Source: an uncultured Candidatus Saccharibacteria bacterium (GTDB lineage Bacteria; Patescibacteriota; Saccharimonadia; CAILAD01; GCA-016700035). Taken from it: a stretch of DNA of 64,000 nt. Of this stretch, positions 3,574-48,487 are shown piece by piece. Position 1 is the first letter of the stretch. Every line of letters starts with the position of its first letter. Position numbers and translations under genes: made by a program. The notes under the pieces were generated by a model. The model was not told the DNA's origin, made no database searches, and worked only from the letters and a program-made list of their open reading frames with translations. Location: NCBI GenBank assembly GCA_964454845.1, contig CAYVVS010000002.1, positions 1,465 through 65,464 of the forward strand. Reading direction: 5' to 3'.

Positions 3574-3619
3574 CTATATCTGTTAGTACGGGTGCGGATG
3601 TATTATAATACGATAGACC

Positions 3620-14686: not shown

Positions 14687-14707
14687 TTTTTTAGAGATTA
14701 CTAGTAA

Positions 14708-15847
14708 CTATTTGATAAACCGAGCGTTCCCCAATTGACTCGTCGGTATGGTGCGTACAGAGTAGCCACCACGCGGGCTGTAGTTATACTCACTTACAGT
14801 AATCGAGTTGCCGTTATTTGACTCTACGATTGCCACGTGCCCCCATGGGCCATCTGGCCAAGCTACAATATCGCCGTAAGCTGGGGTTACATTAGCGCTG
14901 CCACGAGGCCACCACTGATTAGCATTCCCCCAATAACGAGGCACCATGCGCCCAATGCTGGCGCGCTTCCAGGCGGCGTAGCTTACACATTCTCGGTTAT
15001 AATATCCATAATCATCAACCAAACTATCCTGTGCAGCCTTACACCAAACATCCGGATAGCCACCACCGCACTGACCGCCAGACCTAAAACTTCCACCAGC
15101 TGCAGCATTGCGACGAATCTCTTCAGCGCGAGCTGCAAATACAGCTGCGAGCTGTGATTCATTCTGCTTGACAATGCCCTGATAAGCAGCTTCTTCTCCC
15201 CGCGTCTGAGTTAAGAGTGCCTGCTGTTCAGACCGCTTAGCGGCGATATTAGCTACTTGAGCTTTCTCATCTGCAGCTTTTTCGGTTAAAGTAACCTTCT
15301 TCTGCTCGAGCTCGGCCTTCAAGCGATTAATTTCAGAAATATTAGACTCGATCTTATCTTTCAAATCGTCCATATATTGCTGCTTACCAACAAAATCAGA
15401 GAGGTTTTCACTTGAAGCCAAAACTTCAATCGGTGTAACGTCACGATCTTTGTACATGGTCTTGAGATTTTGCTTGAGGTTATCTACCTGCTTAGTAAGC
15501 TCAGCATTCTGACGATCCAGCTCTTCGGTGGTCTTTGTAATTTCGGTACGGGTCAGATTGAGAGCGCTCTGGGCAGCTGAAATTTCGGCATTCAGTGCCG
15601 CAACTTTAGCTTGCAAGGTGTCACCTTCGGCTCGTTTTTGATTCGCAGAATTTTTATTCTGATTAATCTGATTACGCAACGCGTTAATTTGCGCATCATA
15701 ATCAACCGCAAAAGCCTTTGGCGCCAACACGCCAAGCACACCAATAACCGCTAGAACAACCAGTATTCTAGTGAGTCGTTGGTGTTTTTTTGTAGTATTT
15801 TGGTGTCGAATCAAGATCATCACCCTCCTTTTTGCTTCTACCCCCAT
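14708..15847 (-). CDS. PcsB-like secreted coiled-coil peptidoglycan hydrolase with C-terminal CHAP domain (copy 2)
   Basis: Same architecture as the neighbour, with shared blocks (VLASSENLSDFVGKQQY vs VFASSENLSDFVGRQEY). CHAP Cys (NRECVSYAAWK) and His (GHVAIVES). The start may be an internal Met. Confidence 0.8.
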   Translation of the reverse strand: MGVEAKRRVMILIRHQNTTKKHQRLTRILVVLAVIGVLGVLAPKAFAVDYDAQINALRNQINQNKNSANQKRAEGDTLQAKVAALNAEISAAQSALNLTRTEITKTTEELDRQNAELTKQVDNLKQNLKTMYKDRDVTPIEVLASSENLSDFVGKQQYMDDLKDKIESNISEINRLKAELEQKKVTLTEKAADEKAQVANIAAKRSEQQALLTQTRGEEAAYQGIVKQNESQLAAVFAARAEEIRRNAAAGGSFRSGGQCGGGYPDVWCKAAQDSLVDDYGYYNRECVSYAAWKRASIGRMVPRYWGNANQWWPRGSANVTPAYGDIVAWPDGPWGHVAIVESNNGNSITVSEYNYSPRGGYSVRTIPTSQLGNARFIK

Positions 15848-15895
15848 ATGTATTTCGAAGCAGTAAGCATTACCGTTAGTCTATCACAGAATGCG

Positions 15896-16807
15896 CTAAA
15901 GCTTCAAATGGCGCGAGATTGCAAGAAAGCTCGAAAGTGTGCCAATAACAATTCCCAAAGTATACATCGCCAGTGTCACCAAAAAGATCCGATCAGTAAC
16001 AAAAGTTACTACATCGCTGGCATTAAAATAGCTCGTGAAGAGCGGCCTCGCAACGTTGATAAGCGGAAGAGTAATTGCCATCGCCACAGTTGCACCGATA
16101 ATGCCATACATCGCCCCCTCAATAAGAAACGGACCTCGAATATACCAGTTGGTTGCTCCCACTAGTTTCATAATCTCGATTTCTTCGCGACGGGTGAAGA
16201 TTGCCATACGGATAGTATTAAAGATAATCATCAGACTAATCAGCAAGAAAGCTACAGAAATTACCGTACCCACCTTTGAAACGCCACTAGAAATCGAAAC
16301 GATGCGGTCAACTACCTTACGCCGAACGTCACTATCATCGTTACTGGTACTGGCCACAATTACTGCCGCACTATCGGCTTTAATCTGGCTATTGAGTGCG
16401 TCAAGATTCTCGAGCGTTTCGGTACGCACCTCTAATGATGCGGGTAGCGGATTACCGATCTCTGTTGCAGTTTTTGCGAGCTGTTCGCCATCTTTTGAGC
16501 TGGTGCGCAGTCGCTCCAAAGCGTCAGTCTTAGATACATAACGCACCTCCGCTACATTCTCGAGCGTCTGAATATTGGCCTGCAGCTGCTTAACCTGGTC
16601 TGGTGTAGCTTCGTCTTTCAAGAATACCGTGAGGTCAATTTTTTCTCGTACTGCCGCCAGCTGATTCTGCAAGAAAAGCGCAGAGAAGGCAAAAAAGGCC
16701 ACAATCACCAAGGTAACCACCATAATTGCGGTAGCCGCTATCGAAAGCCATGCGTTCCGGAACAAGTTCCGAAAACCAGTCTTAAACATGCGCCACAGCG
16801 TAATCAT
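15896..16807 (-). CDS. ftsX: Cell-division ABC transporter permease-like protein FtsX
   Basis: 4-TM FtsX topology with a large extracellular loop after TM1. Directly downstream of ftsE. Confidence 0.9.
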   Translation of the reverse strand: MITLWRMFKTGFRNLFRNAWLSIAATAIMVVTLVIVAFFAFSALFLQNQLAAVREKIDLTVFLKDEATPDQVKQLQANIQTLENVAEVRYVSKTDALERLRTSSKDGEQLAKTATEIGNPLPASLEVRTETLENLDALNSQIKADSAAVIVASTSNDDSDVRRKVVDRIVSISSGVSKVGTVISVAFLLISLMIIFNTIRMAIFTRREEIEIMKLVGATNWYIRGPFLIEGAMYGIIGATVAMAITLPLINVARPLFTSYFNASDVVTFVTDRIFLVTLAMYTLGIVIGTLSSFLAISRHLKL

Positions 16808-16835
16808 TATTGTTTCACCCTCCTAATCCAATCCG

Positions 16836-17528
16836 TTATAGAACGTAACGTCCTACTTTTTCATCTTTCAAAATACGTCCATTCTGGATCGTAATCACAC
16901 GACGCTTTAGGGCATTCACTATTTCCTTATTATGAGTCGTAAGTAATACCGTGGTACCAAATTTGTTGATCTTTAAAAGCAATTCAATAATGTCCCAAGA
17001 GTTTTTGGGGTCCAAGTTGCCGGTCGGCTCATCGGCGATTAAGATCTTAGGGTTTCGTACCAAGGCCCTGGCAATGGCTACGCGCTGCTTCTCGCCGCCT
17101 GATATTTCTTTAGGATAATTGTTAGCTTTCTCGGCCAAACCTACGAGCTGCAAAATTTTTGGTACCGCGCGCTTAATTTCTGAAGTGCGCACACCGCTGG
17201 CCTCGAGGGCAAAAGCAACATTCTCATAAACCGTCAGATTAGGTAGTAACTTAAAGTCCTGAAATACCACCCCAATACGTCGGCGCAAGTGTGGAATACT
17301 CGTCTTCCCAATCGTATCGTAATCTATCGAACCAACAATAATTTTTCCGCTTGTCGGAACTTCTTCTTTAATAAGTAGTCGAATTAGCGTTGACTTACCT
17401 GCACCCGATGAACCTACTACTGTTACAAACTCTTTTGGCTGTATATGTAAACTGACGCCCGACAAAGCGACCGTCTTATTTGGATACATCACTGAAACTC
17501 GATCAAGTAAAATCACGTATGCACTCAT
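16836..17528 (-). CDS. ftsE: Cell-division ATP-binding protein FtsE
   Basis: Track ORF 16836..17921 trimmed to ATG 17528 (MSAYVILLDRVSV...). Walker A GSSGAGKST, signature ISGGEKQR, Walker B ILIADEPTGNLD. The longer ORF would overlap murA. Confidence 0.9.
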   Translation of the reverse strand: MSAYVILLDRVSVMYPNKTVALSGVSLHIQPKEFVTVVGSSGAGKSTLIRLLIKEEVPTSGKIIVGSIDYDTIGKTSIPHLRRRIGVVFQDFKLLPNLTVYENVAFALEASGVRTSEIKRAVPKILQLVGLAEKANNYPKEISGGEKQRVAIARALVRNPKILIADEPTGNLDPKNSWDIIELLLKINKFGTTVLLTTHNKEIVNALKRRVITIQNGRILKDEKVGRYVL

Positions 17529-17595
17529 CTTAACATATGCGCTTGAGCTTGTGCACGACTGCAAGTGGCAAAAAAAGCCTGCTACAATAAGCAGT

Positions 17596-18849
17596 ATGAC
17601 GAAACTTGCCATCACCGGCCCCACCCGTTTACAGGGAGAATGGTTTACTGCCGGCTCAAAAAATGCCGTCCTACCAATGCTAGCAGGCTGCCTTTTAACG
17701 AAAGAAAAAGTAACACTTGAAAATGTACCTCGCATCTCAGATGTTGATGTAATGCTAGAAATCTTGACCTCACTCGGCGCGAAAATCTGGCGTGAAGGAC
17801 ATACCGTTACAGTTGAGGCAGACAATCTGACCACTGCGACTATTCCCGACGAACTCACGGCTAAAATGCGAGCTTCCGTACTTATTTTGGGAGCGGCAGT
17901 CGGGCGCCTAGGCAGCATCACTGCCGCTCAACCTGGCGGCGACATTATTGGTGCAAGGCCCCTTGCTTCTCACCTCAAGGCGTTTCAAGCTATGGGCCTA
18001 TCTGTGGTGCGCGAACAAGGGCACATTACAGTATCTGGTAAACCTCAGGGCGGGCGAGTTGTGCTGGGCGAACTTACCGTTACCGGCGCAGAAAACGCGA
18101 TTATGGCTGCCGTACTTGCCACTGGCACAACCGAGCTCCGTATGGTTGCGCTCGAGCCCCACGTGATAGACCTCTGCTTACTCTTACAACAAATGGGTGC
18201 GCGCATCGAAGGGATAGGCACTCACAACCTAACTATTCATGGCGTTGAAACACTAAATGGAACGCTTTTTCGAGTACCTCCAGATCAGCTAGAAAGTGGC
18301 ACTATTGCGATTGCTGCGGCGGCCTCACGCGGCGATGTAATTATTCACGATTTTATCCGCGACGAACACGATGTACTCCTTACATTATTTGATCAAATCG
18401 GTGTGCAATATCAACTACCCAACGCAAAAACAATACATATTCTGCCTGGTGGCGACTATCAGGCGGTAAATGTACGCACTCAACCCTATCCAAACTTCCC
18501 CAGCGACTTACAAGCACCTCTAGCTGTTTTACTTACGCAGTGCGCTGGCACCTCAGAAATTTTTGAAACTCTTTATGAAGGCCGCCTGCAATACCTATTT
18601 GAACTGCAGCGCATGGGTGCAGCCGTAGCCATTCGCGACACACACACTGGTCTAATTACCGGCCCGACACCACTTGCTGGAGCCGATCTCGTCAGTTTCG
18701 ACATCCGCGCTGGCGCCACTATCCTCATTGCCGCCCTGATCGCGCAAGGTAAGACCATAATCGACCGCATCGAACATATTGACCGCGGCTATGAACGGAT
18801 CGAAGAGCGCTTGCAAGCTCTCGGCGCCCAACTCCAACGCATTAACTAA
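17596..18849 (+). CDS. murA: UDP-N-acetylglucosamine 1-carboxyvinyltransferase
   Basis: Trimmed to ATG 17596 (MTKLAITGPTRLQGEW...). GSKNAVLPMLAG and further EPSP-synthase-fold MurA blocks are present. Confidence 0.95.
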   Translation: MTKLAITGPTRLQGEWFTAGSKNAVLPMLAGCLLTKEKVTLENVPRISDVDVMLEILTSLGAKIWREGHTVTVEADNLTTATIPDELTAKMRASVLILGAAVGRLGSITAAQPGGDIIGARPLASHLKAFQAMGLSVVREQGHITVSGKPQGGRVVLGELTVTGAENAIMAAVLATGTTELRMVALEPHVIDLCLLLQQMGARIEGIGTHNLTIHGVETLNGTLFRVPPDQLESGTIAIAAAASRGDVIIHDFIRDEHDVLLTLFDQIGVQYQLPNAKTIHILPGGDYQAVNVRTQPYPNFPSDLQAPLAVLLTQCAGTSEIFETLYEGRLQYLFELQRMGAAVAIRDTHTGLITGPTPLAGADLVSFDIRAGATILIAALIAQGKTIIDRIEHIDRGYERIEERLQALGAQLQRIN

Positions 18850-21472: not shown

Positions 21473-21509
21473 TAGATGAACCTGAACATCCGATGGAGCT
21501 CAGATCCGG

Positions 21510-22592
21510 TTACGGAGCCGTGACGGCTCCGCTGTTGGTCTGGTCACCGACGTTCGTGTCCATGTCGGGGTTTGAAGCCCCGGCACTTCCACCGGTGGTG
21601 GTGCCAGACGGACCGTCCGTCGCGCCCGAAGGCGTGGTGACACCTGATCCAGTACCAGTTCCGGGGGTGCCGAACGGAGTGGCTCGGTAGGGATCGGCGC
21701 CGTTCCGAGTTGCTTCCGCGTCTCGGTTCTGCTGGTTGGTCACCGCCTCGGCGTTACCGGGAGTGTAGCCCGGCGTAGCAGCCTGCGGGTTGGAGCCAAC
21801 GGGATCCATGTCCGGACCGGAGTCCGGGGTGCCGCAGTAGAGACCGGTCTGACCCGCGCACTTGCCCGAAGGCGTCGTGGTTGGGGTTGTGTGCCGACCA
21901 GACTTACCTGGTGTCACCGGCCGCGAGGGCTGGTTCGACGCAGGCGGAGCACCCTTGCCGGGCACGCTCGGTGGGAAGTTCTGCTCCACGGGCTGGTAGC
22001 CACAGTTGAGCTTGAACTGCTTCACGGTCCCATCGGGGAACGTGAAGCGGATCACCTTGAACGGCGCGGCTTCAACCGGGACCTGGTAGATCTCGGGGAT
22101 GGTTCTCCCCTTGTCCTCCATGTCCATGGTCTGGTACGCACCGCTCATCTCGACGATCTCCACCTTGATGGCCTCGTTGAGGCGCGCCTGGAAGCGCATC
22201 TCGCTGAGAGCCCAAGCATCCGGGTTCGACATGAGGTCGACGGTCTTCTGCACTCGGGTCGGCGCATCCGAGAACTCGTTGAAGAGGTACTCGGAGTCAC
22301 CCACGAGGAGCGCGGCGTCAGAGCAGCGTCGCGAGGCGAAGTCCGCCTGCGTTGCTGCCACATTGGCCGGATCCTCCGGAGCGGCGGGGCCGAACTGGTT
22401 CCCCTCCGTGAAACGGGAGAAGAAGATCTGGTTCGTGCCACACGCAGCCGGAGTGGTTGAGGCGGTCGGATCGGCACCCGCATCGGGCGGGCCGACGATC
22501 ACCTTGATGACCGGGAAGATCAGCAGCAACAGCGCAGCAGCGCCGATGATGCCGAAGAAGAACCTCTGCTGAGCAGAGTTGGGAGCGCTCAT
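21510..22592 (-). CDS. Island gene A: N-terminally anchored, Cys-containing exoprotein with Pro/Thr/Gly-rich tail (360 aa), function unknown
   Basis: GGAGG 6 nt upstream of the ATG. TM anchor FFFGIIGAAALLLLIFPVIKVIV, five Cys in the ectodomain, low-complexity C-terminus. High GC3. Confidence 0.7.
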   Translation of the reverse strand: MSAPNSAQQRFFFGIIGAAALLLLIFPVIKVIVGPPDAGADPTASTTPAACGTNQIFFSRFTEGNQFGPAAPEDPANVAATQADFASRRCSDAALLVGDSEYLFNEFSDAPTRVQKTVDLMSNPDAWALSEMRFQARLNEAIKVEIVEMSGAYQTMDMEDKGRTIPEIYQVPVEAAPFKVIRFTFPDGTVKQFKLNCGYQPVEQNFPPSVPGKGAPPASNQPSRPVTPGKSGRHTTPTTTPSGKCAGQTGLYCGTPDSGPDMDPVGSNPQAATPGYTPGNAEAVTNQQNRDAEATRNGADPYRATPFGTPGTGTGSGVTTPSGATDGPSGTTTGGSAGASNPDMDTNVGDQTNSGAVTAP

Positions 22593-22725
22593 CGCGCACC
22601 TCCTTGTGGGTCGGTGTCGCGAATGCGACTCTTGATGGATGTTCAGGTTCTGGTTCTGACATCAAGGACGCACTACTGTTTTACCAGCTATGGGTACTTA
22701 AGGCCAGAATAAAACCAAAATGTGT

Positions 22726-22753
22726 CTTCCTGGGGCCCGAAGGCCCCAGGAAG
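22726..22753 (-). terminator. Intrinsic terminator of island gene B
   Basis: Perfect 12-bp stem cttcctggggcc / ggccccaggaag. UUCG loop on the transcribed strand, followed by acacattttggttttatt. Confidence 0.7.
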
Positions 22754-22760
22754 CAAGGGG

Positions 22761-23537
22761 TCAGTTCGCCGAAGCGGTGGCTGCAGCAGCAGCCTGCGTG
22801 GTCGAGAACTGGCTCCCAGAGAGAGGGAGTGATGGGGGTGTGGTCCCCACAGCCTGCAGCGGCTGGTCGGCCGGAGGCGGAGGCGGCGTGACAGCAGCGA
22901 CCGGCTGGTCGGCCGGGGGCTGCGGTGCCACCACCACGTTTCCACTCGCCGAGGCGGAGGAACGCGTGATGATGCTGCGCCCGTTGCCAGGCAGGCAGGT
23001 CAGCACGATGGCAACGATGGCACCGATGAGCACCGCCCAGAACCATTGGTTCTGCGTGGTGAACCGATCGCCTCGCACCCACTCCACTCCTTCGATGAAG
23101 AAGTAGACGACGAGCGCGGTGATGACCCCACCGATGAGGGGGATCCAGCCGTTGGCTGCCTCCAACCGCGCGATCGCGGTGGCGTGAGCGTTCGAGTGGA
23201 CCTGCAGCCCTTCGATGCGACTGCCCAGACCGAGAACGTTGTTCTCGACGGTTCCGAGCCGCTGGCTGAACTGCTGGAGTTCCCCCCTGAAGCCGGAGAC
23301 CAGGCCCCTGACGTCTTCACGTTCGCGATTGAGCTCCTCGAGCTCTTCACGCACCATGCCCTTGAACCACTCACTGGTGGCGGCATCGAGCTGGACCTTA
23401 CGGTCCTGGACGGCAGCGTCGAGACGCTGCAGGTTGTCCTCCGCCTCCTTGAGGCGACGGGTGATGCGCTGCATCTCGGCACTGCGAGCCGCAGCGTTGG
23501 TCACCGACATCTGTCGGTCTCGTGCTGTTCTGTTCAT
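22761..23537 (-). CDS. Island gene B: coiled-coil protein with two TM helices and Pro-rich tail (258 aa), function unknown
   Basis: GGGAGGGG SD just upstream of the ATG. About 125 aa heptad-like N-terminus, TMs WIPLIGGVITALVVYFFIEGV and WFWAVLIGAIVAIVLTCLPG, and a repeated PPADQP(V/L) tail. Confidence 0.7.
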   Translation of the reverse strand: MNRTARDRQMSVTNAAARSAEMQRITRRLKEAEDNLQRLDAAVQDRKVQLDAATSEWFKGMVREELEELNREREDVRGLVSGFRGELQQFSQRLGTVENNVLGLGSRIEGLQVHSNAHATAIARLEAANGWIPLIGGVITALVVYFFIEGVEWVRGDRFTTQNQWFWAVLIGAIVAIVLTCLPGNGRSIITRSSASASGNVVVAPQPPADQPVAAVTPPPPPADQPLQAVGTTPPSLPLSGSQFSTTQAAAAATASAN

Positions 23538-23603
23538 ATCCCCTCCCGGGGTGTGTTGTGCCGGGGTTTTTCAACACCCGGGTTGAGGTACGAATACCGT
23601 TGC

Positions 23604-23632
23604 ATAATAGCATAAAATGCATAATTTTGCAA
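23604..23632 (-). promoter_or_regulatory. Predicted promoter of island gene B inside an AT-rich spacer
   Basis: Minus strand TTGCAA-17 nt-TATTAT. The spacer line 23581-23640 is 19/60 G+C. Confidence 0.45.
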
Positions 23633-23685
23633 TAGTTTTATGTAAAGTCAATATGCTTATGCCAAAGAAAGTTAACAAAAAAATA

Positions 23686-23712
23686 GGGCGACCTGGTGTA
23701 CCCAGGTCGCCC
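23686..23712 (-). terminator. Intrinsic terminator of island gene C
   Basis: Perfect 11-bp stem gggcgacctgg / ccaggtcgccc with a 5-nt loop. On the transcribed strand it is followed by tattttttt. Confidence 0.75.
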
Positions 23713-23721
23713 AGATGAGCA

Positions 23722-25296
23722 TCAAGCAGCGCTGTGCTGCCCGTATTCCAGAAGGAGACGTCGATCCGCCTCCTCACGCTGCTCTTGAGGAGTCCGATAT
23801 GCCCAGTGCTCAACCGGGTCATCATCTTCGGCAACCCGCTGCATCATGGCGACAACTACCTCTTCTGGCAAGTTCGCCAGAATGGACTCGTCCGACTTCC
23901 GCTTACCGCGACTCGCGTCACGATCTGCACTGTCAGCTGGTCCATCCGCCTGAGGCTGCTGAGCGTCCGACTCTTCGACTGGATCGCTGGACTGCCGCCC
24001 TGCAGCTGGAGCCTTCGGCGAGGGGCGCATGGCCGCTCGGCCACCACCCCGCACCACATGGCGCTCCGGCTCGGGAGCATCACTGCTGCTGACGGTACGA
24101 CGACCCTCACTCGTCCGGACCACAGGAACCGGCTGAGTAGGAGGTCCTTCGAGCTCCTTCGGAACACCGCTGTTTGCAACACCCGTCTCGGGCTCGCTTG
24201 CAGCCGTGTCATCCGTAGTACTGCTCGCCGGCTCCTCGGATGCGGGTCGAGGCGGAAGCCCCGGTACCGCTGTGCGCTTGGCACTCCGTGGGTGACGGCG
24301 AGAACTTGAGCTCTGCTGACGTCGGTAGTGAGTCTCCGAAGGCCAGGTGAAGTCCTCCAGGTTCTCCTGGATGGTTTCCTTGCCCTCGAAAACTCGCAGG
24401 GTGGACCGAACCGCAATCCGGTAGTACCACACCAGCTCCCGCAAATCGGGATTGGCTGCGATCTCATCCCTGGTGGGCGAGACAGGTACGTCCTGCCCCT
24501 CCTCACGAGGAAGCTGGAACAGGCGCTTTTCGGCCTCTTCAGGCGACTGATTCAGTGCCTGATACAGAGCGTAGCCCTGCTCGTAGACCGCGAGAGCAAG
24601 CGCCCAGACTGCAGCATCGGCTTCGTCGCGCGTGCCGCTTTGGCGAGCTGCGACAGAGGCTTCGAGCAACGGTCGCAGAGCCTCGCGATAGGAGTCGAGC
24701 TGACGCTCTCCATCCACGGGAGGTGTCGGTGCGGCCGAAGCAGCTTCGGGCTCCGGAGCCGGAGGTGTCTCGCCGGTATCGACTGGGGCACCGTCGGGTG
24801 CCGAAGCACTCGGAGAGTCCTGATCGAAGGGCAGCGAGCCAGCGCCATCAGCGTCGTCCGGCTCGGGCTGTTCACCAATGAACCGGTCGACGGCGGAGGC
24901 AAGCGTGTTCGGAACGAACTGGTTGCCGTTGTGAATGGCTTGCCTCTCCTCGCCCTCTTCGAGATCCTCGTTGAGGATCTCCTGCAAGAGCTCGAGAGCT
25001 GACGCCTCATCCAGCGACGGATCGGCCTCCATCAACCTTGCGGTCAGATGGGAAGCCCGAAGCTGAATCCTGCGAGGCGCAGGTGCTGCAGCCGCCTCGT
25101 CGGCGGCGTCATCTGCGGGATCTGCGAGATGTTCTTCGTCGGCCACGATGGCCTCCTGTTCTCCGGCAACACCGGGGTTGGGGCCATCATCGGCCGGGGT
25201 TGTACCACCACACGTGGCGGCGACTTCATCTGGATCGAGCTGGGAGAATTCATCCAGGCTCATTCCGGACCTGCCTTCACTCATGCTGTACCTCAT
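23722..25296 (-). CDS. Island gene C: acidic, largely low-complexity protein (524 aa; no TM, no recognised motif)
   Basis: Longest frame of several overlapping high-GC frames. It is co-directional with its neighbours and bracketed by the promoter and terminator above. The start may be the fifth codon (ATG 25284, GAGG upstream). TGA stop. Confidence 0.6.
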   Translation of the reverse strand: MRYSMSEGRSGMSLDEFSQLDPDEVAATCGGTTPADDGPNPGVAGEQEAIVADEEHLADPADDAADEAAAAPAPRRIQLRASHLTARLMEADPSLDEASALELLQEILNEDLEEGEERQAIHNGNQFVPNTLASAVDRFIGEQPEPDDADGAGSLPFDQDSPSASAPDGAPVDTGETPPAPEPEAASAAPTPPVDGERQLDSYREALRPLLEASVAARQSGTRDEADAAVWALALAVYEQGYALYQALNQSPEEAEKRLFQLPREEGQDVPVSPTRDEIAANPDLRELVWYYRIAVRSTLRVFEGKETIQENLEDFTWPSETHYRRQQSSSSRRHPRSAKRTAVPGLPPRPASEEPASSTTDDTAASEPETGVANSGVPKELEGPPTQPVPVVRTSEGRRTVSSSDAPEPERHVVRGGGRAAMRPSPKAPAAGRQSSDPVEESDAQQPQADGPADSADRDASRGKRKSDESILANLPEEVVVAMMQRVAEDDDPVEHWAYRTPQEQREEADRRLLLEYGQHSAA

Positions 25297-25344
25297 CTGC
25301 TGTGTCGGTTTCGGAATAAATTGTCAGGTGCAAAAAACACAAAA

Positions 25345-25748: not shown

Positions 25749-28748
25749 CTACGCCGGGGGTACGGGTATATTAAAGTTAGTTAGAATTTGCTCAGTGGGC
25801 ATGCCATTCCGCACCTGCATCGCGATAGCTGGCAATACTTTAGCTATCTCCTCATTGCCTGGATTCACTGACGCTACACCAATAATGTCATTTAGCTGAC
25901 GTAATTGATTAACGCCCATCCCCTGTGAAGCCCGATTATACGCCTCATCCAATAGCTTCTGCTTAACTTGTTCTGCAGCCACCGCTCCTGGATTAGCCTC
26001 AGCAAACCGCCCAAGCTCCTGCCAGTTTTTAGGAGCATCAGAACTGGTACGCATGATGCCAGTAAACCTATCCCTCAGTGGATCGTATGGCTTATCCACA
26101 CCTGGATCTTTCGTCGGACCGTTAAAGAAGTGCTTCAGAACAAATGGTGCCGCTGCAGCTGCCACGCCAACCACCGCTGCCCCTCGCTTAGCGCGCTTGT
26201 TCGATTTTGCATCACTATTTACACGGTCCAGTTGATTCTTAAGGAGTAAATCTGCCACCGTAGCTGAAGATTCTGGGTTACCAGCTAGGGCCCCTCGCAG
26301 CACTCGATCACTATACAAGGTGCCGGCATTGGCCTCGAGAAACGCTGCAATCTCCTGCTCGGTCATATTTTCAGCGCCAAGCCCCTCTGCGTTGCCTGAA
26401 ATGTATTCCATATCACGCTCCGCCTTCAGTTGCGTACTAGCCGACTGGGCATTCCAAGTCTCAGTGCGACCACGTAGATCGGCTTTATTCGCTCGACGAT
26501 TATGGAGCATATTCACGCCAGCTTCAGTCGCCATAAATCCACCAGTACCACGCATCACCGCACCAGCACCCGCTACCATTGCGCTACCTACACCGGCGCC
26601 AACGCCGGTCATCGCAATTGCAGCACCCGTTATACCAAGAGCCGCACCAACTGCCAACCTGGTTCGACGACCATTCTTAGAGCGCCAGAAAGTACGGAAC
26701 TTTTCAGATTTTGTACCAACCTTGAGTGCGCACTGTGCAGCTTCAACCTTTGAGCGGGTTTGCGCCATCTCAACAATCATCTCAACCTCAACGCGACGCG
26801 TAACCTCTTCTACGCCTTGACGCAAGCTCTCTAGCTGCTCATCGCACTTCTGGATGGCTTCGCGCGCCTCTAGGAGTCGCGCCTTACGTCGATCAATACG
26901 CGATTGGCGCAATGCAGCCGGCAGTTCAGTATCAGCCTCCAATCGAGCGATTGCCTGGTCTTGAGCTGTCATTTTCTGCTGCATGTCTGTCTTATAGGTG
27001 TTAATGTCATTTTCTACGCCACGATAATCTGCCAGTACAGCGGCCCAATTATCGGTATATTGTGTGTAAGCCAACTCTAGGCTCGCATTTGCTTGCTCTA
27101 GAGCTGCTTGATCACGCTTTGTTCGGCCAAAGAATTTTTCCCGCTGTTCTTTTGCCTGGGCTACCGCCTGAATCTGGGCATCAACGTTTAAGCGTGCGCC
27201 CTCGGCCAAGGCAAGAATTTCGCTAGGCTGCGGCACTCTCGGGACACCATCTACATAACCTTCGCTTTCATACGGCTCGCCATCCTCTGGGGAATTCCTG
27301 CCGCCTTCGCCATCATTCTGAAGTTTTTCAATGCGCGAAATACTATCTTCATTAATTGCAAACTCAGTGCCGCTCTCTAAGTTCAGAAGTCGCAACCGAG
27401 CTGGGTCTTCACCAACTTTTTGAATAACCATATGCGGAGCTTTGTCGCCATCCGCTTCAGTATAAGTGACCATTTCACCATTCTTGAATGTGACACCACC
27501 AATTTCAAACTGGTAATCGTTCTCGATTGATTCTTGTCGCTCAACGCGCGTCATCGGCTGAAGCTGGGCTTCCCCAGATTGCGCAGGATGTGGGGAAGGC
27601 GCCTGGTCAAAATTTGTTTGCGTAGTAGATACTGGCTCTGCCTGGTCAGCACGAGGCTGACTGCCGCTCGCTTCAGTAGCAAGCGGGCTCGCGGGAGCAC
27701 CATAAAACGCTTCTGTATCATTCTCGGCAAGTATTTGCTTTAAATCATCGCCAAGTTCATGGCCAAATTTATCATTTATTGCTTGATCGCTGATTTGTTC
27801 TGGCTGTGCTGGCATTGCGCCGCTCCTGTTTTGTTCGTCCTGACTATCATAACCGGTTTGATTATCTGCTGGCAAGTCAGCGCGTTGAGTTTCTCGAGCC
27901 CAGCCATCTGGTGGCAGGCTGCGCTCATACTCCTCATCTTTATCGTAATCATTACTGTCAAAATATCGGGCCTCTCGGATACGCCTGGAATCCTCGGCCT
28001 CCTGGGCTTGTCTTCTTTGACGCGCATTACGCTGGGGTTGCCGCTTACCAGCACCCTGCTTTTCTTGCTTATCACTCGATGCATCCTTCAGGCTTCCGTC
28101 TGAGTTATAGCGATCGTAAAATTCTGACCAAATTGCCTTCGTAACTGGCCGCATACCGGCTTTCACTTCACGCGCAAGTTCATCCAGCAAAATATCAGCA
28201 GGCTTCGCACCTCCACCCAATGAATCGCCATGTCGGCGGTTCACGCGCGTCTGCACTCCATCCCAGCCTTTAATTTTACGCAATTCTCGCATTATCTCGT
28301 TCAAGGGACGGCCAGTATATCTGTAGGGATCATTCGTACGTGAGTGCTCCGTGCGGTCGGCTTGCGGTGTATCATCAATGAGTACAGGATTATCAAGTTT
28401 GGTCGTGAAATTCTCCATAGCTTGCTGAATTTCGACACGCTCACTCTGCAGGGATGCGAGGTGGCTCGAGACACGTTCCGATTCCTCGGAATCACCAGAT
28501 TCACCCAGCGAGGCCAGCTTACTCTCAGCTTGAGCAATTGCTCGCTCTACTTGTGGTAACTGTGCTGCCACGGCCCCAAATGTCGGCGCTTTACGCGTAT
28601 CCGCAGGGGTAAGCTCTACTTCAGCGTCATCGGTATGCGCCTGTGATAACTCACTAGCTAATTCAGCGCCTCGAGACCCTGAATCTCCAAACTGATTTGG
28701 ATCTAGCTCGTCAAAGCCACGCATAACATCATGTGATTTATCACCCAT
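25749..28748 (-). CDS. Giant (999 aa) protein: acidic disordered N-terminal half, long coiled coil, Gly/Ala-rich TM segments; function unknown
   Basis: Single long ORF. TM-like LAVGAALGITGAAIAMTGVGAGVGSAMVAGAGAV and AAVVGVAAAAAPFVL. Sampled composition is intermediate (34/60 and 33/60 G+C at 26521 and 27961). Confidence 0.7.
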   Translation of the reverse strand: MGDKSHDVMRGFDELDPNQFGDSGSRGAELASELSQAHTDDAEVELTPADTRKAPTFGAVAAQLPQVERAIAQAESKLASLGESGDSEESERVSSHLASLQSERVEIQQAMENFTTKLDNPVLIDDTPQADRTEHSRTNDPYRYTGRPLNEIMRELRKIKGWDGVQTRVNRRHGDSLGGGAKPADILLDELAREVKAGMRPVTKAIWSEFYDRYNSDGSLKDASSDKQEKQGAGKRQPQRNARQRRQAQEAEDSRRIREARYFDSNDYDKDEEYERSLPPDGWARETQRADLPADNQTGYDSQDEQNRSGAMPAQPEQISDQAINDKFGHELGDDLKQILAENDTEAFYGAPASPLATEASGSQPRADQAEPVSTTQTNFDQAPSPHPAQSGEAQLQPMTRVERQESIENDYQFEIGGVTFKNGEMVTYTEADGDKAPHMVIQKVGEDPARLRLLNLESGTEFAINEDSISRIEKLQNDGEGGRNSPEDGEPYESEGYVDGVPRVPQPSEILALAEGARLNVDAQIQAVAQAKEQREKFFGRTKRDQAALEQANASLELAYTQYTDNWAAVLADYRGVENDINTYKTDMQQKMTAQDQAIARLEADTELPAALRQSRIDRRKARLLEAREAIQKCDEQLESLRQGVEEVTRRVEVEMIVEMAQTRSKVEAAQCALKVGTKSEKFRTFWRSKNGRRTRLAVGAALGITGAAIAMTGVGAGVGSAMVAGAGAVMRGTGGFMATEAGVNMLHNRRANKADLRGRTETWNAQSASTQLKAERDMEYISGNAEGLGAENMTEQEIAAFLEANAGTLYSDRVLRGALAGNPESSATVADLLLKNQLDRVNSDAKSNKRAKRGAAVVGVAAAAAPFVLKHFFNGPTKDPGVDKPYDPLRDRFTGIMRTSSDAPKNWQELGRFAEANPGAVAAEQVKQKLLDEAYNRASQGMGVNQLRQLNDIIGVASVNPGNEEIAKVLPAIAMQVRNGMPTEQILTNFNIPVPPA

Positions 28749-38649: not shown

Positions 38650-39720
38650 CTAGCGCGGAGTTTTTTCGTACTGCGTTGAAACTAAAACGTCTTTTAAGGT
38701 ATCAATATCTTCAAGTACAGCACCAGTTCCACGAGCAACTGCCGTTAAAGGGTCTTCTACGATCACGACCGGCATTTTAGTTTGTTGCGTCAAGAGCTCA
38801 TCAAGACCGCGTAGGAGCGCACCGCCTCCAGCGAGATGAATTCCGCGGTCCATAATGTCGGCAATCAGTTCTGGCGGCGTTTCTTCGATCGTGTCTTTTA
38901 CTGCGTTCACGATGGCCCGGACCGACTTCGAGAGCGCCGTACGGACTTGATCGGAGTTAATAATTACTTCCTTTGGCAAGCCAGTTACAATATCGCGGCC
39001 GCGTATGGGTGCCTCCAGCACATGCTCCAGCTCACAGGCCGAACCAACTGAAAGCTTAATAGCTTCGGCCGTACGCTCTCCAACCTGCAGGTTAAATTCC
39101 TCCTTAGCAAAGGCAATAATATCCTCGGTAAGCTCATCACCGGCAATCCTTATCGAACGTGAGGCAACAATGCCTCCAAGCGAAATAACCGCCACCTCGC
39201 TGGTGCCACCACCAATATCAACAATCATCGAGCCTGCAGCATCGTTAATTGGCAGCTCTGCGCCTACTGCTGCTGCCATCGGCTCCTCAATAAGATAGGC
39301 CGAACGCGCGCCTGCATTAGTTGCCGCATCCTCTACAGCTCGCTTCTCCACTTCAGTCACACCAGATGGAATGCCGATTACGACACGAGGACGCGGAATC
39401 AGCGCAAAGTGCGCCTTGTGTACTTTATCAATAAAGTATTTAAGCATCTGTTCGGTCACTTCAAAATCCGAGACTACACCATCAACGAGTGGTCGTGAGG
39501 CTACGATATTTGCTGGCGTCTTCCCAACCATGCGCTTAGCCTCATCGCCAATGGCCAAAATCTGCCGGGTCTTGTTGTTGATTGCCACCACACTTGGTTC
39601 ATCAATAATAATGCCCTTACCGCGCAGGTACACCAAAGTATTGGCCGTCCCTAAATCGATGCCAATATCGTGAGACAGCCGCCCGATAAATTCTGGTAGA
39701 CGGACTCTTGGAAATTTCAT
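38650..39720 (-). CDS. mreB: Rod shape-determining protein MreB (paralog 2, in the mreBCD-pbp2 cluster)
   Basis: DIGIDLGTANTLVYL, DIGGGTSEVAVISL, LAGGGALLRGLD. Confidence 0.95.
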   Translation of the reverse strand: MKFPRVRLPEFIGRLSHDIGIDLGTANTLVYLRGKGIIIDEPSVVAINNKTRQILAIGDEAKRMVGKTPANIVASRPLVDGVVSDFEVTEQMLKYFIDKVHKAHFALIPRPRVVIGIPSGVTEVEKRAVEDAATNAGARSAYLIEEPMAAAVGAELPINDAAGSMIVDIGGGTSEVAVISLGGIVASRSIRIAGDELTEDIIAFAKEEFNLQVGERTAEAIKLSVGSACELEHVLEAPIRGRDIVTGLPKEVIINSDQVRTALSKSVRAIVNAVKDTIEETPPELIADIMDRGIHLAGGGALLRGLDELLTQQTKMPVVIVEDPLTAVARGTGAVLEDIDTLKDVLVSTQYEKTPR

Positions 39721-43005: not shown

Positions 43006-43602
43006 CTAAGCGCCAAGTTCTAAACGCACAAAGCGTCGCACTACAATATTTTCGCCCAGCTTACCAATGGCAGCTTTCACCAAATCTTCAATGGTTTGCT
43101 TATCGTCTTTGTAGTATGGCTGCTCCAAAAGACAAATCCCGGCCATCCACTTGTCGAGCTTACCTTCAACGATTTTTGTAGCGTGCTCGGCTGGCTTGCC
43201 AGACTCCTTCACTTCTTCTTCAAAAAAAGCTTTTTCCTTCGCAACCACTTCTGCTGGAACGTCTTCACGGCGCACAAACTGCGGGTTCATCGCGGCGATA
43301 TGTAGAGAAAGCTCTTCTACTAGCTCCTGAAAATCATCAGTTTTCACAACAAAATCTGTTTCACAGTTCACTTCAACTAGTACGCCAATGCGGCCGCCAT
43401 GCACGTAGCTTCCAATCGTACCGGCACCAGTACCGCGATCGGCTTTTTTTTCGGCGCTCGCCAAGCCCTTCAAGCGCAAAATTTCCTGGGCCTTATCGAT
43501 GTCTCCGTTAGATTCCTGAAGAGCTTCTTTGGCCTTCATCATGCCGGCACCAGTCATTTGGCGTAGCTTCTGAATATCCTCGATAGATACGGTCACGGTC
43601 AT
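43006..43602 (-). CDS. tsf: Elongation factor Ts (short form)
   Basis: Trimmed to ATG 43602 (MTVTVSIEDIQKLRQMTGAGMMKAKEAL...). The longer track ORF would overlap rpsB. Confidence 0.9.
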   Translation of the reverse strand: MTVTVSIEDIQKLRQMTGAGMMKAKEALQESNGDIDKAQEILRLKGLASAEKKADRGTGAGTIGSYVHGGRIGVLVEVNCETDFVVKTDDFQELVEELSLHIAAMNPQFVRREDVPAEVVAKEKAFFEEEVKESGKPAEHATKIVEGKLDKWMAGICLLEQPYYKDDKQTIEDLVKAAIGKLGENIVVRRFVRLELGA

Positions 43603-43603
43603 C

Positions 43604-44362
43604 TTACTTCTCCTCTTCGTCTTGCTTGGTTTTTGCGTCATACTCAGCCTTACCCTCGGCAGCAGCGCGGGCAATACGTCCAGCCACAAGCTGGATTGAG
43701 CGGATTGCGTCATCATTTGCAGGAATAATGTAGTCAACCGATTCTGGGTTGGCATTTGTATCAGCCATCGCAATTACTGGAATCTTTAGGGTCTTAGCTT
43801 CTTTAATAGCGGTTTCTTCACGCATTACATCAACTACAAAGATTGCACCAGGAGTACCTTCAAGCTCTTTAACGCCGAGAAATACCTTAGTAAGCTTCTC
43901 AATTTCATTATCAATCAAGAGACGCTCTTTTTTGGTCATGCGCTCTAGGCTCCCGTCTTCACGCGCAGATTCAAGCTTCTTCAGGTGGCGAATTCGCTTC
44001 GAGATAGTCTCCCAGTTGGTCATCATGCCGCCGAGCCAGCGGTGCGTAACGTAAGGCATATCAGCGCTTTTAGCAGCTTCGGTAACAATCGCCTTAGCCT
44101 GACGCTTGGTTGCAACAAACAATACAGCCTTGCCTTGTGCAGTCAGCTGACGAACAAACTTCTCGGCTTCTTCTAAAAGATCTTCGGTTTGAATGAGGTC
44201 AATAATATGAACTCCGCCGCGAGCACCATGAATGTATTGAGCCATTTTAGGGTGCCAACGCTCGGTGCGATGACCAAAGTGGGCGCCAGACTGTAAAAGC
44301 TCTTTTACGGCGGCAGTTTTATCTGGTTTTGCTGCGGTTGCAGCAGTCTTCTTAGTAGGCAT
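43604..44362 (-). CDS. rpsB: 30S ribosomal protein S2
   Basis: LLQSGAHFGHRTERWHPKM..., typical S2, directly upstream of tsf. Confidence 0.95.
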   Translation of the reverse strand: MPTKKTAATAAKPDKTAAVKELLQSGAHFGHRTERWHPKMAQYIHGARGGVHIIDLIQTEDLLEEAEKFVRQLTAQGKAVLFVATKRQAKAIVTEAAKSADMPYVTHRWLGGMMTNWETISKRIRHLKKLESAREDGSLERMTKKERLLIDNEIEKLTKVFLGVKELEGTPGAIFVVDVMREETAIKEAKTLKIPVIAMADTNANPESVDYIIPANDDAIRSIQLVAGRIARAAAEGKAEYDAKTKQDEEEK

Positions 44363-45761: not shown

Positions 45762-45788
45762 ATCAGCCGTGCCTGAAAGGTCATAAGC

Positions 45789-45818
45789 AAAACCCCCGTT
45801 CGTAAGAGCGGGGGTTTT
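45789..45818. terminator. Bidirectional intrinsic terminator between the Rpf-like gene and the HExxH gene
   Basis: aaaacccccg...cgggggtttt (10-bp arms). Confidence 0.75.
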
Positions 45819-45824
45819 GCGATT

Positions 45825-47018
45825 TTATTCTGCCGCAGGAGCCCCTACTGCAGCTTTTTCGGGGAAATATTTGGCATACAGTGCATCCACAACGATTTGC
45901 TGAAACTGTATCGCGCTCGCAGTGTCGGTATCTCTAATATCACGCAATCTCTTATACAAACCCGGTTCTAAGGCATTGAGCTTTTGAGCAATCTGTCGAA
46001 GCCCTTCCACATTACTTCGCGACAAAATGAATGCATCAAATAATGTTGGATCATCTTCAACTAAAAAAGACAACGCTTGAGCAAGGAACGCGTAATTATG
46101 AACACCGATATCTTCCCCCCTCAAAGTTCCTCGCTCACCTTCATTATCAAGCAACCGCCTATCAATATAGCCGACCCTACCGCTTATTCGTGATTGTTTA
46201 AGATGCTTAATGATATTTTTTAACCCAAGTGGGGGTGCCCCCTCTATGTTAATGGTTACACTACCCCCTTCTATAGATATAACTAATGCATCTCCAAACG
46301 CCCCCGCTTCAGGGGTACCATACCTCGGTCCTATACCTGGATCATAATCAGATTCTGTGTAATACCTTTGAGCCATATGTTCGCAGAACGCTTCTTCAAG
46401 CGCATTGCCATGGGCGCTTTCTATAGCATTACCAATTCTCACAGTATCCTGCACCATGTAATCATGATCTATCGAAAAATAATTTTGATATGCGCTACTA
46501 CTATGAGCCAATTCATGCACAACAAGGCCTTGTAGCTGGGTATGATAGTCTTTTTCACGCCCAGACTTTACACGATCATCCGGCGCATCGAGTTTGATTA
46601 CTACTGCATCTGCACGGCTGTCGTATCTTCCTTGAATTTTACCTTCCAGATCGGCATATTTACCGTCAAATTCCTCCAAAAAGTAAACGGGCTTAGTATT
46701 AAGCCCAAACCGATGGATGAATGAAAGTGCTTCATCTATATTTGGTCGCTCAACCCTCTGTACTCTTTCTTTTCTTTCATAAGATATTCGTCTAAATTCC
46801 GCATTCGACAACAATGCTTTTTTCGCTTTTTCAACGTATTCAGCAGAATGAGGGGCTTGGGGAGAATATGCATACCCTTTGTGGTCGACAACTTCACGCC
46901 CCTTAACTTGAGCCTCATCTGGAATAGTGCTGCCTTGATGAACGAGACTGGATAAATCCGGAACTGAAGGCTTAAATTCTTGATCGGGGTGCAAGCTGCT
47001 ATTTTCAGGACTAGACAT
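45825..47018 (-). CDS. HExxH-motif protein (putative zinc metallopeptidase) with N-terminal module shared with the upstream gene
   Basis: VVHELAHSS. N-terminus MSSPENSSLHPDQEFKPSVPDLSS is homologous to the 47068-47979 product. No signal peptide or TM. Confidence 0.6.
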   Translation of the reverse strand: MSSPENSSLHPDQEFKPSVPDLSSLVHQGSTIPDEAQVKGREVVDHKGYAYSPQAPHSAEYVEKAKKALLSNAEFRRISYERKERVQRVERPNIDEALSFIHRFGLNTKPVYFLEEFDGKYADLEGKIQGRYDSRADAVVIKLDAPDDRVKSGREKDYHTQLQGLVVHELAHSSSAYQNYFSIDHDYMVQDTVRIGNAIESAHGNALEEAFCEHMAQRYYTESDYDPGIGPRYGTPEAGAFGDALVISIEGGSVTINIEGAPPLGLKNIIKHLKQSRISGRVGYIDRRLLDNEGERGTLRGEDIGVHNYAFLAQALSFLVEDDPTLFDAFILSRSNVEGLRQIAQKLNALEPGLYKRLRDIRDTDTASAIQFQQIVVDALYAKYFPEKAAVGAPAAE

Positions 47019-47067
47019 ATTGTTTTTGCGTATTTAGATTGAATGCATAATATTGACTTTTCAGCTT

Positions 47068-47979
47068 CTATTCGCCACCGCGCCGCATGTCATTACCAAT
47101 CACATCTCCTGTGATAACAGTATTTCGTATCTCGACTTTTTTGTGGTTACCGGCAGATGTAGTTTTTACTGATCCGGTATCTATATCTACCCCTGCTTTG
47201 TCGGCATCCATGATTGCCTGATTGCGATAAGCCTCCTCATTAGCATAATAGTGAGCTGCGGCCTCGGCATTAGCTGACTCATCCCCATCAGTAACTCTGT
47301 CTCTCAATTCTTGAGCCACTTGCCCAGCTATATTCCCTTCTAAATTTGGAGAAATGAATACTCCGCCAGTTTTTTCTGGAACTTGGCGTGTATCACCCTG
47401 AGAAGACGATAGTTCCTGATTAGTATATGGCGGGTAGTTCACATCAACCCCTGCGCGTCGAGCGTCATTTACCGCCTGGTTTTTGTAAGCTTCTTCATTC
47501 TCTCTAAAATGTTCTCCAGCAACGAAGTCTACAGCCTGCACTGCTCGTCCCTGCCGACTAGCTTCCTCTTCAGCTGCTTGTTGCTGTTCTGACCACTTAT
47601 TTCCCCTTGCTTCTAGGATTTTTAAAGCTTGAGTAAGTGCAAACTTATCTCCTAGATTATCCGGATCAGTTGCCTCAAGGTCCTCCAATGCAAGCCTCAG
47701 TTCTTCTACGGCGACTTGCGTATCCTTCCTACTCTCCCGGCTTTCTTTCGCATCCTCTTGAGCCTGTTCAACATAACGAGAATGCTCGGTGTGCCTATCT
47801 CGTAAATGATCCGCTACTCGACCTTCGTCATTATTCTCAAAATGAGTCGCCACACCTCTATCTGGATTACCGGTACCGACGGTTTGATATTCACCTAGAT
47901 TCGGCGTGAGATCTGGTACTGACGGCTTAAAGCCCCGATCACTTCCCTCAGAATGTTCTGGATTATGTGGGTCTGACAT
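47068..47979 (-). CDS. Repeat-containing protein sharing the FKPSVPDL N-terminal module
   Basis: Trimmed to ATG 47979 (MSDPHNPEHSEGSDRGFKPSVPDLTP...). Two copies of an H-x3-NEEAY(K/R)NQA-x2-DA-x2-AGVD repeat. Confidence 0.6.
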   Translation of the reverse strand: MSDPHNPEHSEGSDRGFKPSVPDLTPNLGEYQTVGTGNPDRGVATHFENNDEGRVADHLRDRHTEHSRYVEQAQEDAKESRESRKDTQVAVEELRLALEDLEATDPDNLGDKFALTQALKILEARGNKWSEQQQAAEEEASRQGRAVQAVDFVAGEHFRENEEAYKNQAVNDARRAGVDVNYPPYTNQELSSSQGDTRQVPEKTGGVFISPNLEGNIAGQVAQELRDRVTDGDESANAEAAAHYYANEEAYRNQAIMDADKAGVDIDTGSVKTTSAGNHKKVEIRNTVITGDVIGNDMRRGGE

Positions 47980-48043
47980 TATTTTCCTTTTTTTTAAACT
48001 CGTTATGCTTAAGATATCATCTTCTCGAGACACTCACAAATAT

Positions 48044-48487
48044 CTAGCCCTCTACTCCAATACTTTTTTCATGCAAAAGTGTTGGTAATAAACCAATTGC
48101 CTGTTCATGTGTAAGCGTATGCCCCGCCAGCAATTCCAAGCCTGCGACGACACCTATCTTTGTGCCATCAAGTACCAATTTCTTTACACCGGTGCGACAA
48201 TCGGTAAAATTCACCTCCTGCCACTCACAGCTAAGAAACTGGCAAGAGAGAAACTCGGAGCCACTAAAATCTACCTTATCGAAAATGCAATTACGGAAAA
48301 CGACATGTTTAAACTTACTCGCTCGCCAATTTACCGCTGAAAATTTGCAATCAACATATTCCGAATCCGTCACATGGGTCTCATACATCTGCACGGCAGC
48401 ATAGCGACAATCCACAATTTTTTGCTGAATCCAGCCGGTCCGTACAAATTTTTCATCTATAAACTGCTTACCGCGGGTAGTCTTCAT
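48044..48487 (-). CDS. Pentapeptide-repeat protein
   Basis: Ten consecutive pentads with an F/W centre: CKFSA VNWRA SKFKH VVFRN CIFDK VDFSG SEFLS CQFLS CEWQE VNFTD. Confidence 0.8.
   Translation of the reverse strand: MKTTRGKQFIDEKFVRTGWIQQKIVDCRYAAVQMYETHVTDSEYVDCKFSAVNWRASKFKHVVFRNCIFDKVDFSGSEFLSCQFLSCEWQEVNFTDCRTGVKKLVLDGTKIGVVAGLELLAGHTLTHEQAIGLLPTLLHEKSIGVEG

Follow-up and report, generated by a model that had tools for sequence, protein, structure and literature searches.

In the 64-kb stretch of patescibacterial DNA analysed here (hereafter the window), we have detected two adjacent genes on the minus strand whose products carry one short N-terminal peptide on two unrelated bodies. 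The first of them (47068..47982) encodes a 303-aa helical protein, called here the NEEAY protein after its repeated motif and described from its homologues (P0020-P0030) and an AlphaFold2 (AF2) model. The second (45825..47018) encodes a 397-aa HExxH zincin-like protein of an uncharacterised family, defined by profile search and an AF2 model. Upstream on the same strand (48044..48487) lies a gene for a pentapeptide-repeat protein (PRP) of 147 aa (Pfam Pentapeptide_4, E = 1.3e-16), and the co-directional arrangement of the three genes is as given in an earlier, preliminary description of this DNA. Based on the sequences, the models and the comparison with relatives, we propose, with a probability of roughly 0.4, that the pair consists of a peptidase and a cognate helical partner, and that the disordered peptide which they share would dock both onto one common partner, the most plausible being a step of export or targeting that does not depend on Sec. 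No description of the zincin family or of its NEEAY partner was found in Pfam, NCBIfam, PADLOC, PHROGs, the PDB and the searched literature; both proteins are nevertheless of known kinds, with a zincin fold and a coiled-coil hairpin, respectively.

The zincin-like protein and its family

The HExxH motif noticed in the preliminary description is present as HELAH at residues 168-172 of the 397-aa protein (H168, E169 and H172; 46503..46517, minus strand). A word-indexed search of 5.8 billion proteins returned only three relatives of this protein, and a profile search of 1.84 billion cluster representatives returned 334 at E <= 0.001, mostly of 300-350 aa, giving a family of at least 334 clusters at 50% identity. 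Ten members sampled against Pfam and three scanned against NCBIfam had no match, and the recurrent sub-threshold Pfam matches over 71 members were to SprT-like, M1, M91 and M48, all of them zincins. In an alignment of 71 sequences with about 20-25% identity, residues H168, H172, G196, E208, E209 and R334 are invariant and E169, Y355 and R341 are conserved at >= 90%, and HExxH was found in 149 of 153 representatives. The invariant E208-E209 pair (in ALEEAF; 46392..46397, minus strand) lies in helix 205-222 of the AF2 model and is a candidate third zinc ligand.

The AF2 model of the protein (predicted local distance difference test score 79.9, predicted template modelling score 0.82; residues 1-54 disordered) is zincin-like, in agreement with the protease-type fold expected earlier for the HExxH region, with the metal-binding and catalytic residues invariant. 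Foldseek gave no significant match to this model in the PDB, the best being collagenase G at E = 0.5, with ERAP1, anthrax lethal factor and IrrE (3dte, E = 6.8) among the other non-significant matches. A weak IrrE-N-like match was obtained in BFVD (probability 0.92, E = 0.19), and a profile search of the PDB gave no sequence match even at E <= 10. We read the HExxH protein as representing a new family within the zincin superfamily with its catalytic motif intact, and it is probably catalytically active.

The closest comparison is with the gluzincins (MA clan: M1, M9 collagenase G and M34 anthrax lethal factor; also M78 ImmA/IrrE), to which the window protein is similar in its HExxH helix with an invariant Glu-Glu pair 36 residues further on, in a helix, and in the mixed beta-sheet that the model shows before the active-site helix. 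The family's LEE[AG]F motif is also similar to the NEGFA motif of M1, and the best fold and Pfam matches, although weak, are all to zincins. The window protein differs from the gluzincins in its disordered N-terminal region and in a strongly conserved C-terminal helical segment peculiar to its family (GLRxxAxKLNxxxPGLYxxLRD, in which R334 is invariant).

The two named members of the family are found in a Saccharimonadaceae genome and in a giant Nocardia protein; of the remaining contexts that were examined, the majority have a patescibacterial appearance. The Nocardia protein (P0148; Nocardia sp., 6408 aa) contains a complete copy of the zincin domain at residues about 3590-3860 (HEVAH, LEEGFAEYVRGRY, GLREVAARIDAISLGLYRKLRDD) within a giant multi-domain actinobacterial protein that is annotated only as a GNAT acetyltransferase. 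Actinobacteria are known hosts of Saccharibacteria. The Saccharimonadaceae member P0045 (L016, 1-5613) adjoins five T4SS_pilin genes and a TrbL_3 gene, an arrangement that other members do not have. A protein of 3021 aa that matched in 13 stretches (P0123) was rejected as a member, being a repeat artefact without HExxH.

The NEEAY protein and the shared N-terminal peptide

We place the true start of the NEEAY gene at the ATG at 47982, which gives 303 aa, because all orthologues and the database gene call begin there, as does the gene in the preliminary description; the list of open reading frames (ORFs) extends the gene to a GTG at 48033. The NEEAY family has 11 members among the 5.8 billion proteins searched and is present in one GTDB species representative (L025, on the same contig as L005), and no match was found in the metagenome contigs or viral contigs. 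The basic form of the protein, of about 200 aa, has a near-invariant N-terminal stretch of 55 residues, a variable centre and the motif HYxxNEEAYKNQAVNDxRRAG. In the AF2 model, residues 1-47 are disordered and are followed by helices at 51-104, 109-175, 217-230 and 234-261, the first two of which form a long antiparallel helical hairpin that ends in the first NEEAY copy. In the 303-aa form, this is joined by a linker to another, smaller hairpin (217-261), which contains NEEAY copy 2, and the chain ends in a disordered tail, so that the NEEAY(K/R)NQA repeats seen earlier amount to two copies. One homologue of 302 aa on a 2987-bp contig (P0030) has its modules reordered: it begins with a module of the second NEEAY type and ends with one resembling the first, the part between them is unrelated, and the FKPSVPDL tail described below is missing.

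The second NEEAY module (~residues 201-303; 47071..47382, minus strand) is homologous by BLASTP to a stand-alone 129-aa gene at locus L023 (34/89 identities, E = 1e-13), which ends 16 nt before a zincin homologue and is followed, after the latter, by the same convergent transglycosylase gene as in the window. In the window and in the related locus L001, the module forms a single protein with the 200-aa form, whereas it is missing wherever a 200/208-aa NEEAY protein occurs without a zincin gene. Since it is separate in L023, fused in the window and L001, and absent where the zincin is absent, the module and the 400-aa zincin clade can be described as a two-gene cassette at all three of the loci with upstream DNA. 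The comparison of these sequences thus points to the zincin and the second NEEAY module as the actual coupled elements. Further loci of the 400-aa zincin clade were found neither in the searched genome contigs nor in the metagenome contigs.

The NEEAY protein and the zincin had been described as sharing their N-terminal ~90 residues. Our comparison reduces this similarity to about 25 residues (residues 1-25: 14/25 identities, E = 2e-6), encoded on the minus strand by codons 1-25 at 47908..47982 in the NEEAY gene and at 46944..47018 in the zincin gene. The full-length BLASTP alignment of the two proteins (27/85 identities, E = 3e-4) is carried by these first 25 residues, and residues about 26-105 gave no alignment even at E <= 100. 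The second sequence anchor that had been quoted in support of the longer similarity (HSAEYVEKAKKA / HSRYVEQAQEDAKE) is not conserved in the orthologues. Within the peptide, both proteins have the identical octamer FKPSVPDL at a near-equal offset from the start (residues 15 and 17), encoded at 47908-47931 and 46953-46976. As reported before, the two 24-nt coding sequences are identical at 19/24 positions; all five differences are synonymous and none is non-synonymous, and no DNA similarity was found upstream of the motif or flanking it. On these grounds, a recent duplication or an RNA-level element behind the 19/24 match was ruled out. An Rfam scan of the region gave no match. The octamer is kept in the L001 pair as FRSSVPDL (zincin) and FKPSVPDL, and residues F17, K18, S20, V21, D23 and L24 are invariant in 10 members of the NEEAY family. 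In both AF2 models, the peptide is located within the disordered N-terminal region.

The preliminary description had considered the common N-terminus to be a conserved trafficking module with variable payloads, and had proposed that further FKPSVPDL proteins be sought. Full-length searches of the 5.8 billion proteins, in which very short matches elsewhere could have been missed, gave 11 and 4 hits with only two C-terminal types, the peptide being found on these two gene families alone, and no other copies were present in the window or in any fetched locus. From its distribution, the 25-residue peptide does not appear to be a trafficking domain. What does stand is that the bodies diverge after the N-terminus, that is, one N-terminal peptide is present on two unrelated, coupled gene products. 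The zincin carries FKPSVPDL only in the window and in L001, where it adjoins an FKPSVPDL-bearing gene, suggesting that the zincin acquired or retained the peptide exactly beside an FKPSVPDL protein and, judging from the diverged codons, that selection at the protein level has preserved it since then. An ancestral N-terminus for the whole 400-aa zincin clade was considered because MAFFT aligned HLRP... with FKPS..., but was rejected, as BLASTP shows no similarity between them.

This distribution bears on the possibility that the common N-terminus has no function and merely records a local recombination event, one gene having received a copy of its neighbour's 5' end during insertion or fusion of the cassette. 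The restriction of the zincin-borne peptide to two lineages with an FKPSVPDL-bearing neighbour is what such an event would leave, as are the distant zincin homologues without the peptide and the fusion of the second NEEAY module in the same two lineages. A functionless copy would not be expected to show an octamer encoded with five synonymous and no non-synonymous differences, nor the survival of the motif in L001 despite 57-61% identity of the whole proteins and saturated synonymous divergence (dS), and no DNA similarity extends beyond the motif, upstream or downstream. We therefore consider a recombination relic very unlikely, and a docking function of the peptide remains our preferred explanation.

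The variable slot and the pentapeptide-repeat protein

The three genes lie between the housekeeping genes rpmE, prfA and prmC on one flank and, on the other, genes for an Rpf-like transglycosylase (Pfam PF06737), a 151-aa membrane protein, rpsB and tsf. They are separated by gaps of 61 nt (PRP/NEEAY) and 49 nt (NEEAY/HExxH), with no terminator-like sites found between them and a strong hairpin only after the last gene, and are probably one operon. This GC-rich hairpin (45787..45820; 15-pair stem with 9 GC pairs), which separates the zincin gene from the transglycosylase gene converging on it, is probably a bidirectional terminator.

The loci of relatives were found through exact-protein look-ups, and the interval from rpmE to the transglycosylase gene was compared by tblastn. 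The locus is a variable slot between these two genes in a narrow patescibacterial clade, and five states of the slot occur. The PRP alone is present in L008-L015, whose flanks make them the nearest relatives (transglycosylase 97% identical); others have the PRP and a 200/208-aa NEEAY protein (L003-L007 and L025), L002 has a 200-aa NEEAY protein only, L001 has a 302-aa NEEAY protein and a 400-aa zincin without the PRP, and the window has all three. In L002 (6603-7439), from a complete genome of 916 kb (CP064998.1), the slot contains the 200-aa NEEAY gene and then some 830 bp in which the sole ORF is one of 64 aa, and no zincin or PRP remnant was found in this stretch by tblastn. Members of the zincin family related to that of the window come from Saccharimonadaceae.

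The genes in the slot also differ in their rates of evolution. The non-synonymous divergence (dN) between the window and L001 is 0.32 for the NEEAY gene and 0.34 for the HExxH gene, compared with 0.017-0.13 for six flanking genes, and the pair proteins as wholes are 57-61% identical, with dS saturated. Across the relatives, the PRP retains 90-95% identity, compared with as little as 46-50% in the centre of the NEEAY protein (tblastn). The rate of the PRP is thus like that of its housekeeping neighbours, and the NEEAY and HExxH genes evolve about 3-20 times faster, which fits a role in interaction or conflict.

The identity of the first gene product as a PRP, as described before, is confirmed by matches to PF13599 (Pentapeptide_4; 60.9 bits, cut-off 38; residues 38-104), PF13576 (30.7 bits, cut-off 27) and PF00805 (20.9 bits, cut-off 20.2). 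The count of ten pentads given with it has to be raised to about 15 by direct reading, with a central hydrophobic residue every five residues from F14 to F94 and C/V/T/S at the i-2 position over residues 27-97. Its cluster at 90% identity has 27 members. The PRP has the beta-helix sequence pattern in common with the gyrase protectors Qnr, MfpA, McbG and AlbG, from which it differs in its length (147 aa compared with about 180-220 aa) and in its NCBIfam scores, which reach 28-31 bits where 240-480 are required (Qnr 27.8 bits, cut-off 240; MfpA 28.5, cut-off 360; QnrB/D/E 27.6-30.9, cut-offs 425-480). It also differs from them in being linked to no toxin or antibiotic gene set and in its conserved place beside rpmE, irrespective of the other contents of the slot.

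In the preliminary description, the three genes had been combined into one model, with two polymorphic effectors or toxins that have the same N-terminal module for trafficking and a protective, Qnr/MfpA-like partner in the PRP. Several of our observations would suit such a model, namely the occurrence of one N-terminal peptide on two unrelated bodies, the fast evolution of both the NEEAY and HExxH genes, the presence of an HExxH enzyme body and the probable operon of three genes. An obligate linkage of PRP and toxin is not seen, however, since the PRP occurs in all combinations of presence and absence with the other genes, being alone in L008-L015 and missing from L002 and L001. It is also housekeeping-like in its conservation while the putative effectors diverge, is only 147 aa long and scores far below the Qnr and MfpA cut-offs. 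Moreover, among 5.8 billion proteins the peptide was found with no more than two kinds of C-terminus, one of the supposed payloads is a coiled coil and no enzyme, and PADLOC gave no match for any of the three proteins. No immunity-like gene was found downstream of the HExxH gene, where the terminator hairpin is followed by the convergent transglycosylase gene. The likeness to polymorphic toxin systems is limited to a common N-terminal element on different C-terminal bodies in a variable locus; the element in the window has 25 residues, occurs on two bodies only and is not a domain, and a downstream immunity gene and a known toxin domain are both lacking. We thus regard the model as highly improbable, and of the effector/immunity reading we retain that the downstream pair is coupled, fast-evolving and zincin-like, and give up the protective partner, the three-gene linkage and the trafficking module.

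A role of the PRP as immunity protein or protector is therefore unsupported, since the linkage fails, the PRP is conserved while the NEEAY protein diverges, and the Qnr and MfpA scores are low; it probably confers no immunity against either of its two neighbours in the slot. It is an ordinary, slowly evolving and usual resident of the slot, independent of the two downstream genes and present or absent without regard to them. This corrects the status of the pentapeptide-repeat gene from an immunity gene to a conserved neighbour of rpmE. In PHROGs, the PRP matched repeat families of unknown function only, the NEEAY protein had an insignificant match only, and the zincin had no match.

Proposed role of the pair and other features of the window

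We favour the reading of the pair as a peptidase and partner with a docking peptide because both genes evolve fast and are patchy among near relatives, the proteins are without Sec signals, and the layout is Esx-like. According to this proposal, the zincin would be an active peptidase and the NEEAY hairpin its cognate adaptor, chaperone or regulator, and the shared disordered peptide would act as a docking motif taking both proteins to one partner. The likeliest partner would be a step at which substrates are recognised for export or targeting without Sec, and on such a route both proteins would be candidate factors in the interaction between epibiont and host.

Esx effectors adjoin small helical-hairpin targeting factors (PMC13622651). 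As in these effectors of the type VII secretion system (T7SS) with their hairpin targeting factors (WXG100-like, Lap), a small helical-hairpin gene lies directly upstream of the enzyme gene in the window, and the genes of both systems are fast-evolving and patchy, with products that lack a Sec signal. The window pair departs from them in having no WXG or LXG motif (by eye) and in the zincin, which has only 54 disordered residues and one helix in place of the N-terminal helical bundle of 110-180 aa. The YxxxE after helix 2 is, by eye, not conserved in P0025-P0028. No T7SS apparatus was seen in the window, and the likeness is one of layout only. Patescibacteria are not known to have a T7SS.

No membrane-like segment was found in any of the three proteins by a Kyte-Doolittle scan (maximum 19-residue means of 1.21, 0.47 and 1.39), which agrees with the earlier statement that transmembrane segments are lacking, and no signal-like segment was seen in the locus proteins. 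The same absences, together with the absence of a secretion apparatus nearby, would be consistent with an intracellular regulatory protease module of ImmA/IrrE-like logic, in which the NEEAY protein would be either a substrate of the zincin or a restraint on it, and FKPSVPDL a cleavage, autoprocessing or degron site. Such a module would also fit the weak IrrE-N-like fold resemblance (E = 0.19 in BFVD; E = 6.8 for 3dte in the PDB), the occurrence of most zincin members as solitary genes in housekeeping contexts, and the location of the peptide in disordered, protease-accessible tails of both proteins. However, a DNA-binding or repressor-like partner is absent, the fold matches are not significant, and the very high dN and patchy occurrence among near relatives would be unusual for a core regulatory circuit. 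Weighing both sides, we hold an intracellular module to be rather unlikely.

Within the preferred reading of a peptidase and partner with a docking peptide, a more specific form can be considered, in which the FKPSVPDL-type peptide would be the recognition signal for a Sec-independent export route of Patescibacteria, e.g., a repurposed monoderm-type type IV secretion system (T4SS), and the pair would be the first sequence-definable substrates or effectors acting on the host. This form we judge quite improbable.

Several points weigh against the proposed export and partnership. Apart from SecA, signal peptidase and sortase, no dedicated secretion apparatus was found in the window. Known T4SS signals usually lie at the C-terminus, and the literature gave no known substrates of the T4SS that is widespread in Patescibacteria. 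The peptidase activity of the zincin is predicted from its motifs, and the protein has no significant fold or profile similarity to any named peptidase family. For the NEEAY model, a fold comparison with the PDB gave generic coiled-coil hairpins only. The association of zincin and second NEEAY module into a cassette is based on three loci (the window, L001 and L023), and most members of the zincin family occur in ordinary neighbourhoods with housekeeping genes, in unrelated contexts. Finally, the more distant 400-aa zincin homologues have an unrelated N-terminus without BLASTP similarity, so the peptide is not required by the whole zincin family.

Patescibacteria, which live on other bacteria, account for much of the diversity of bacteria, and the proteins that they use on their hosts are hardly known. 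The zincin and the NEEAY protein are testable candidates for such epibiont-host factors, and the locus gives access to three things: a metallopeptidase-like family of considerable size for which Pfam and NCBIfam have no model, a helical partner module whose gene is linked to those of one clade in that family, and a short, selectable N-terminal peptide common to both proteins that can be fused to reporters.

Other features were observed elsewhere in the window. The flanking tsf gene (43006-43773, minus strand) is listed as a 255-aa ORF with a TTG start that overlaps rpsB by 170 nt; its real start is expected at an internal Met because EF-Ts of relatives has 196 aa. A GC-rich island at 21500-25300 (GC 0.58-0.61, compared with a window mean of 0.49) looks compositionally foreign and holds three minus-strand ORFs of 360, 258 and 524 aa, which are rich in Pro, Ala and Thr, of low complexity and without a Pfam match. 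Directly beside secA lies a 999-aa ORF (25749-28748, minus strand) with no Pfam match at E <= 1e-4. At 13559-17921 (minus strand), genes for two tandem CHAP-domain proteins (375 and 379 aa) adjoin ftsX and an ABC ATPase gene, probably ftsE, a set that reads as a duplicated PcsB/FtsEX-like arrangement of cell-wall hydrolases. The window also encodes two MreB paralogues (882-1934 and 38650-39720, minus strand), the second of which adjoins mreC and a PBP2-type transpeptidase gene.

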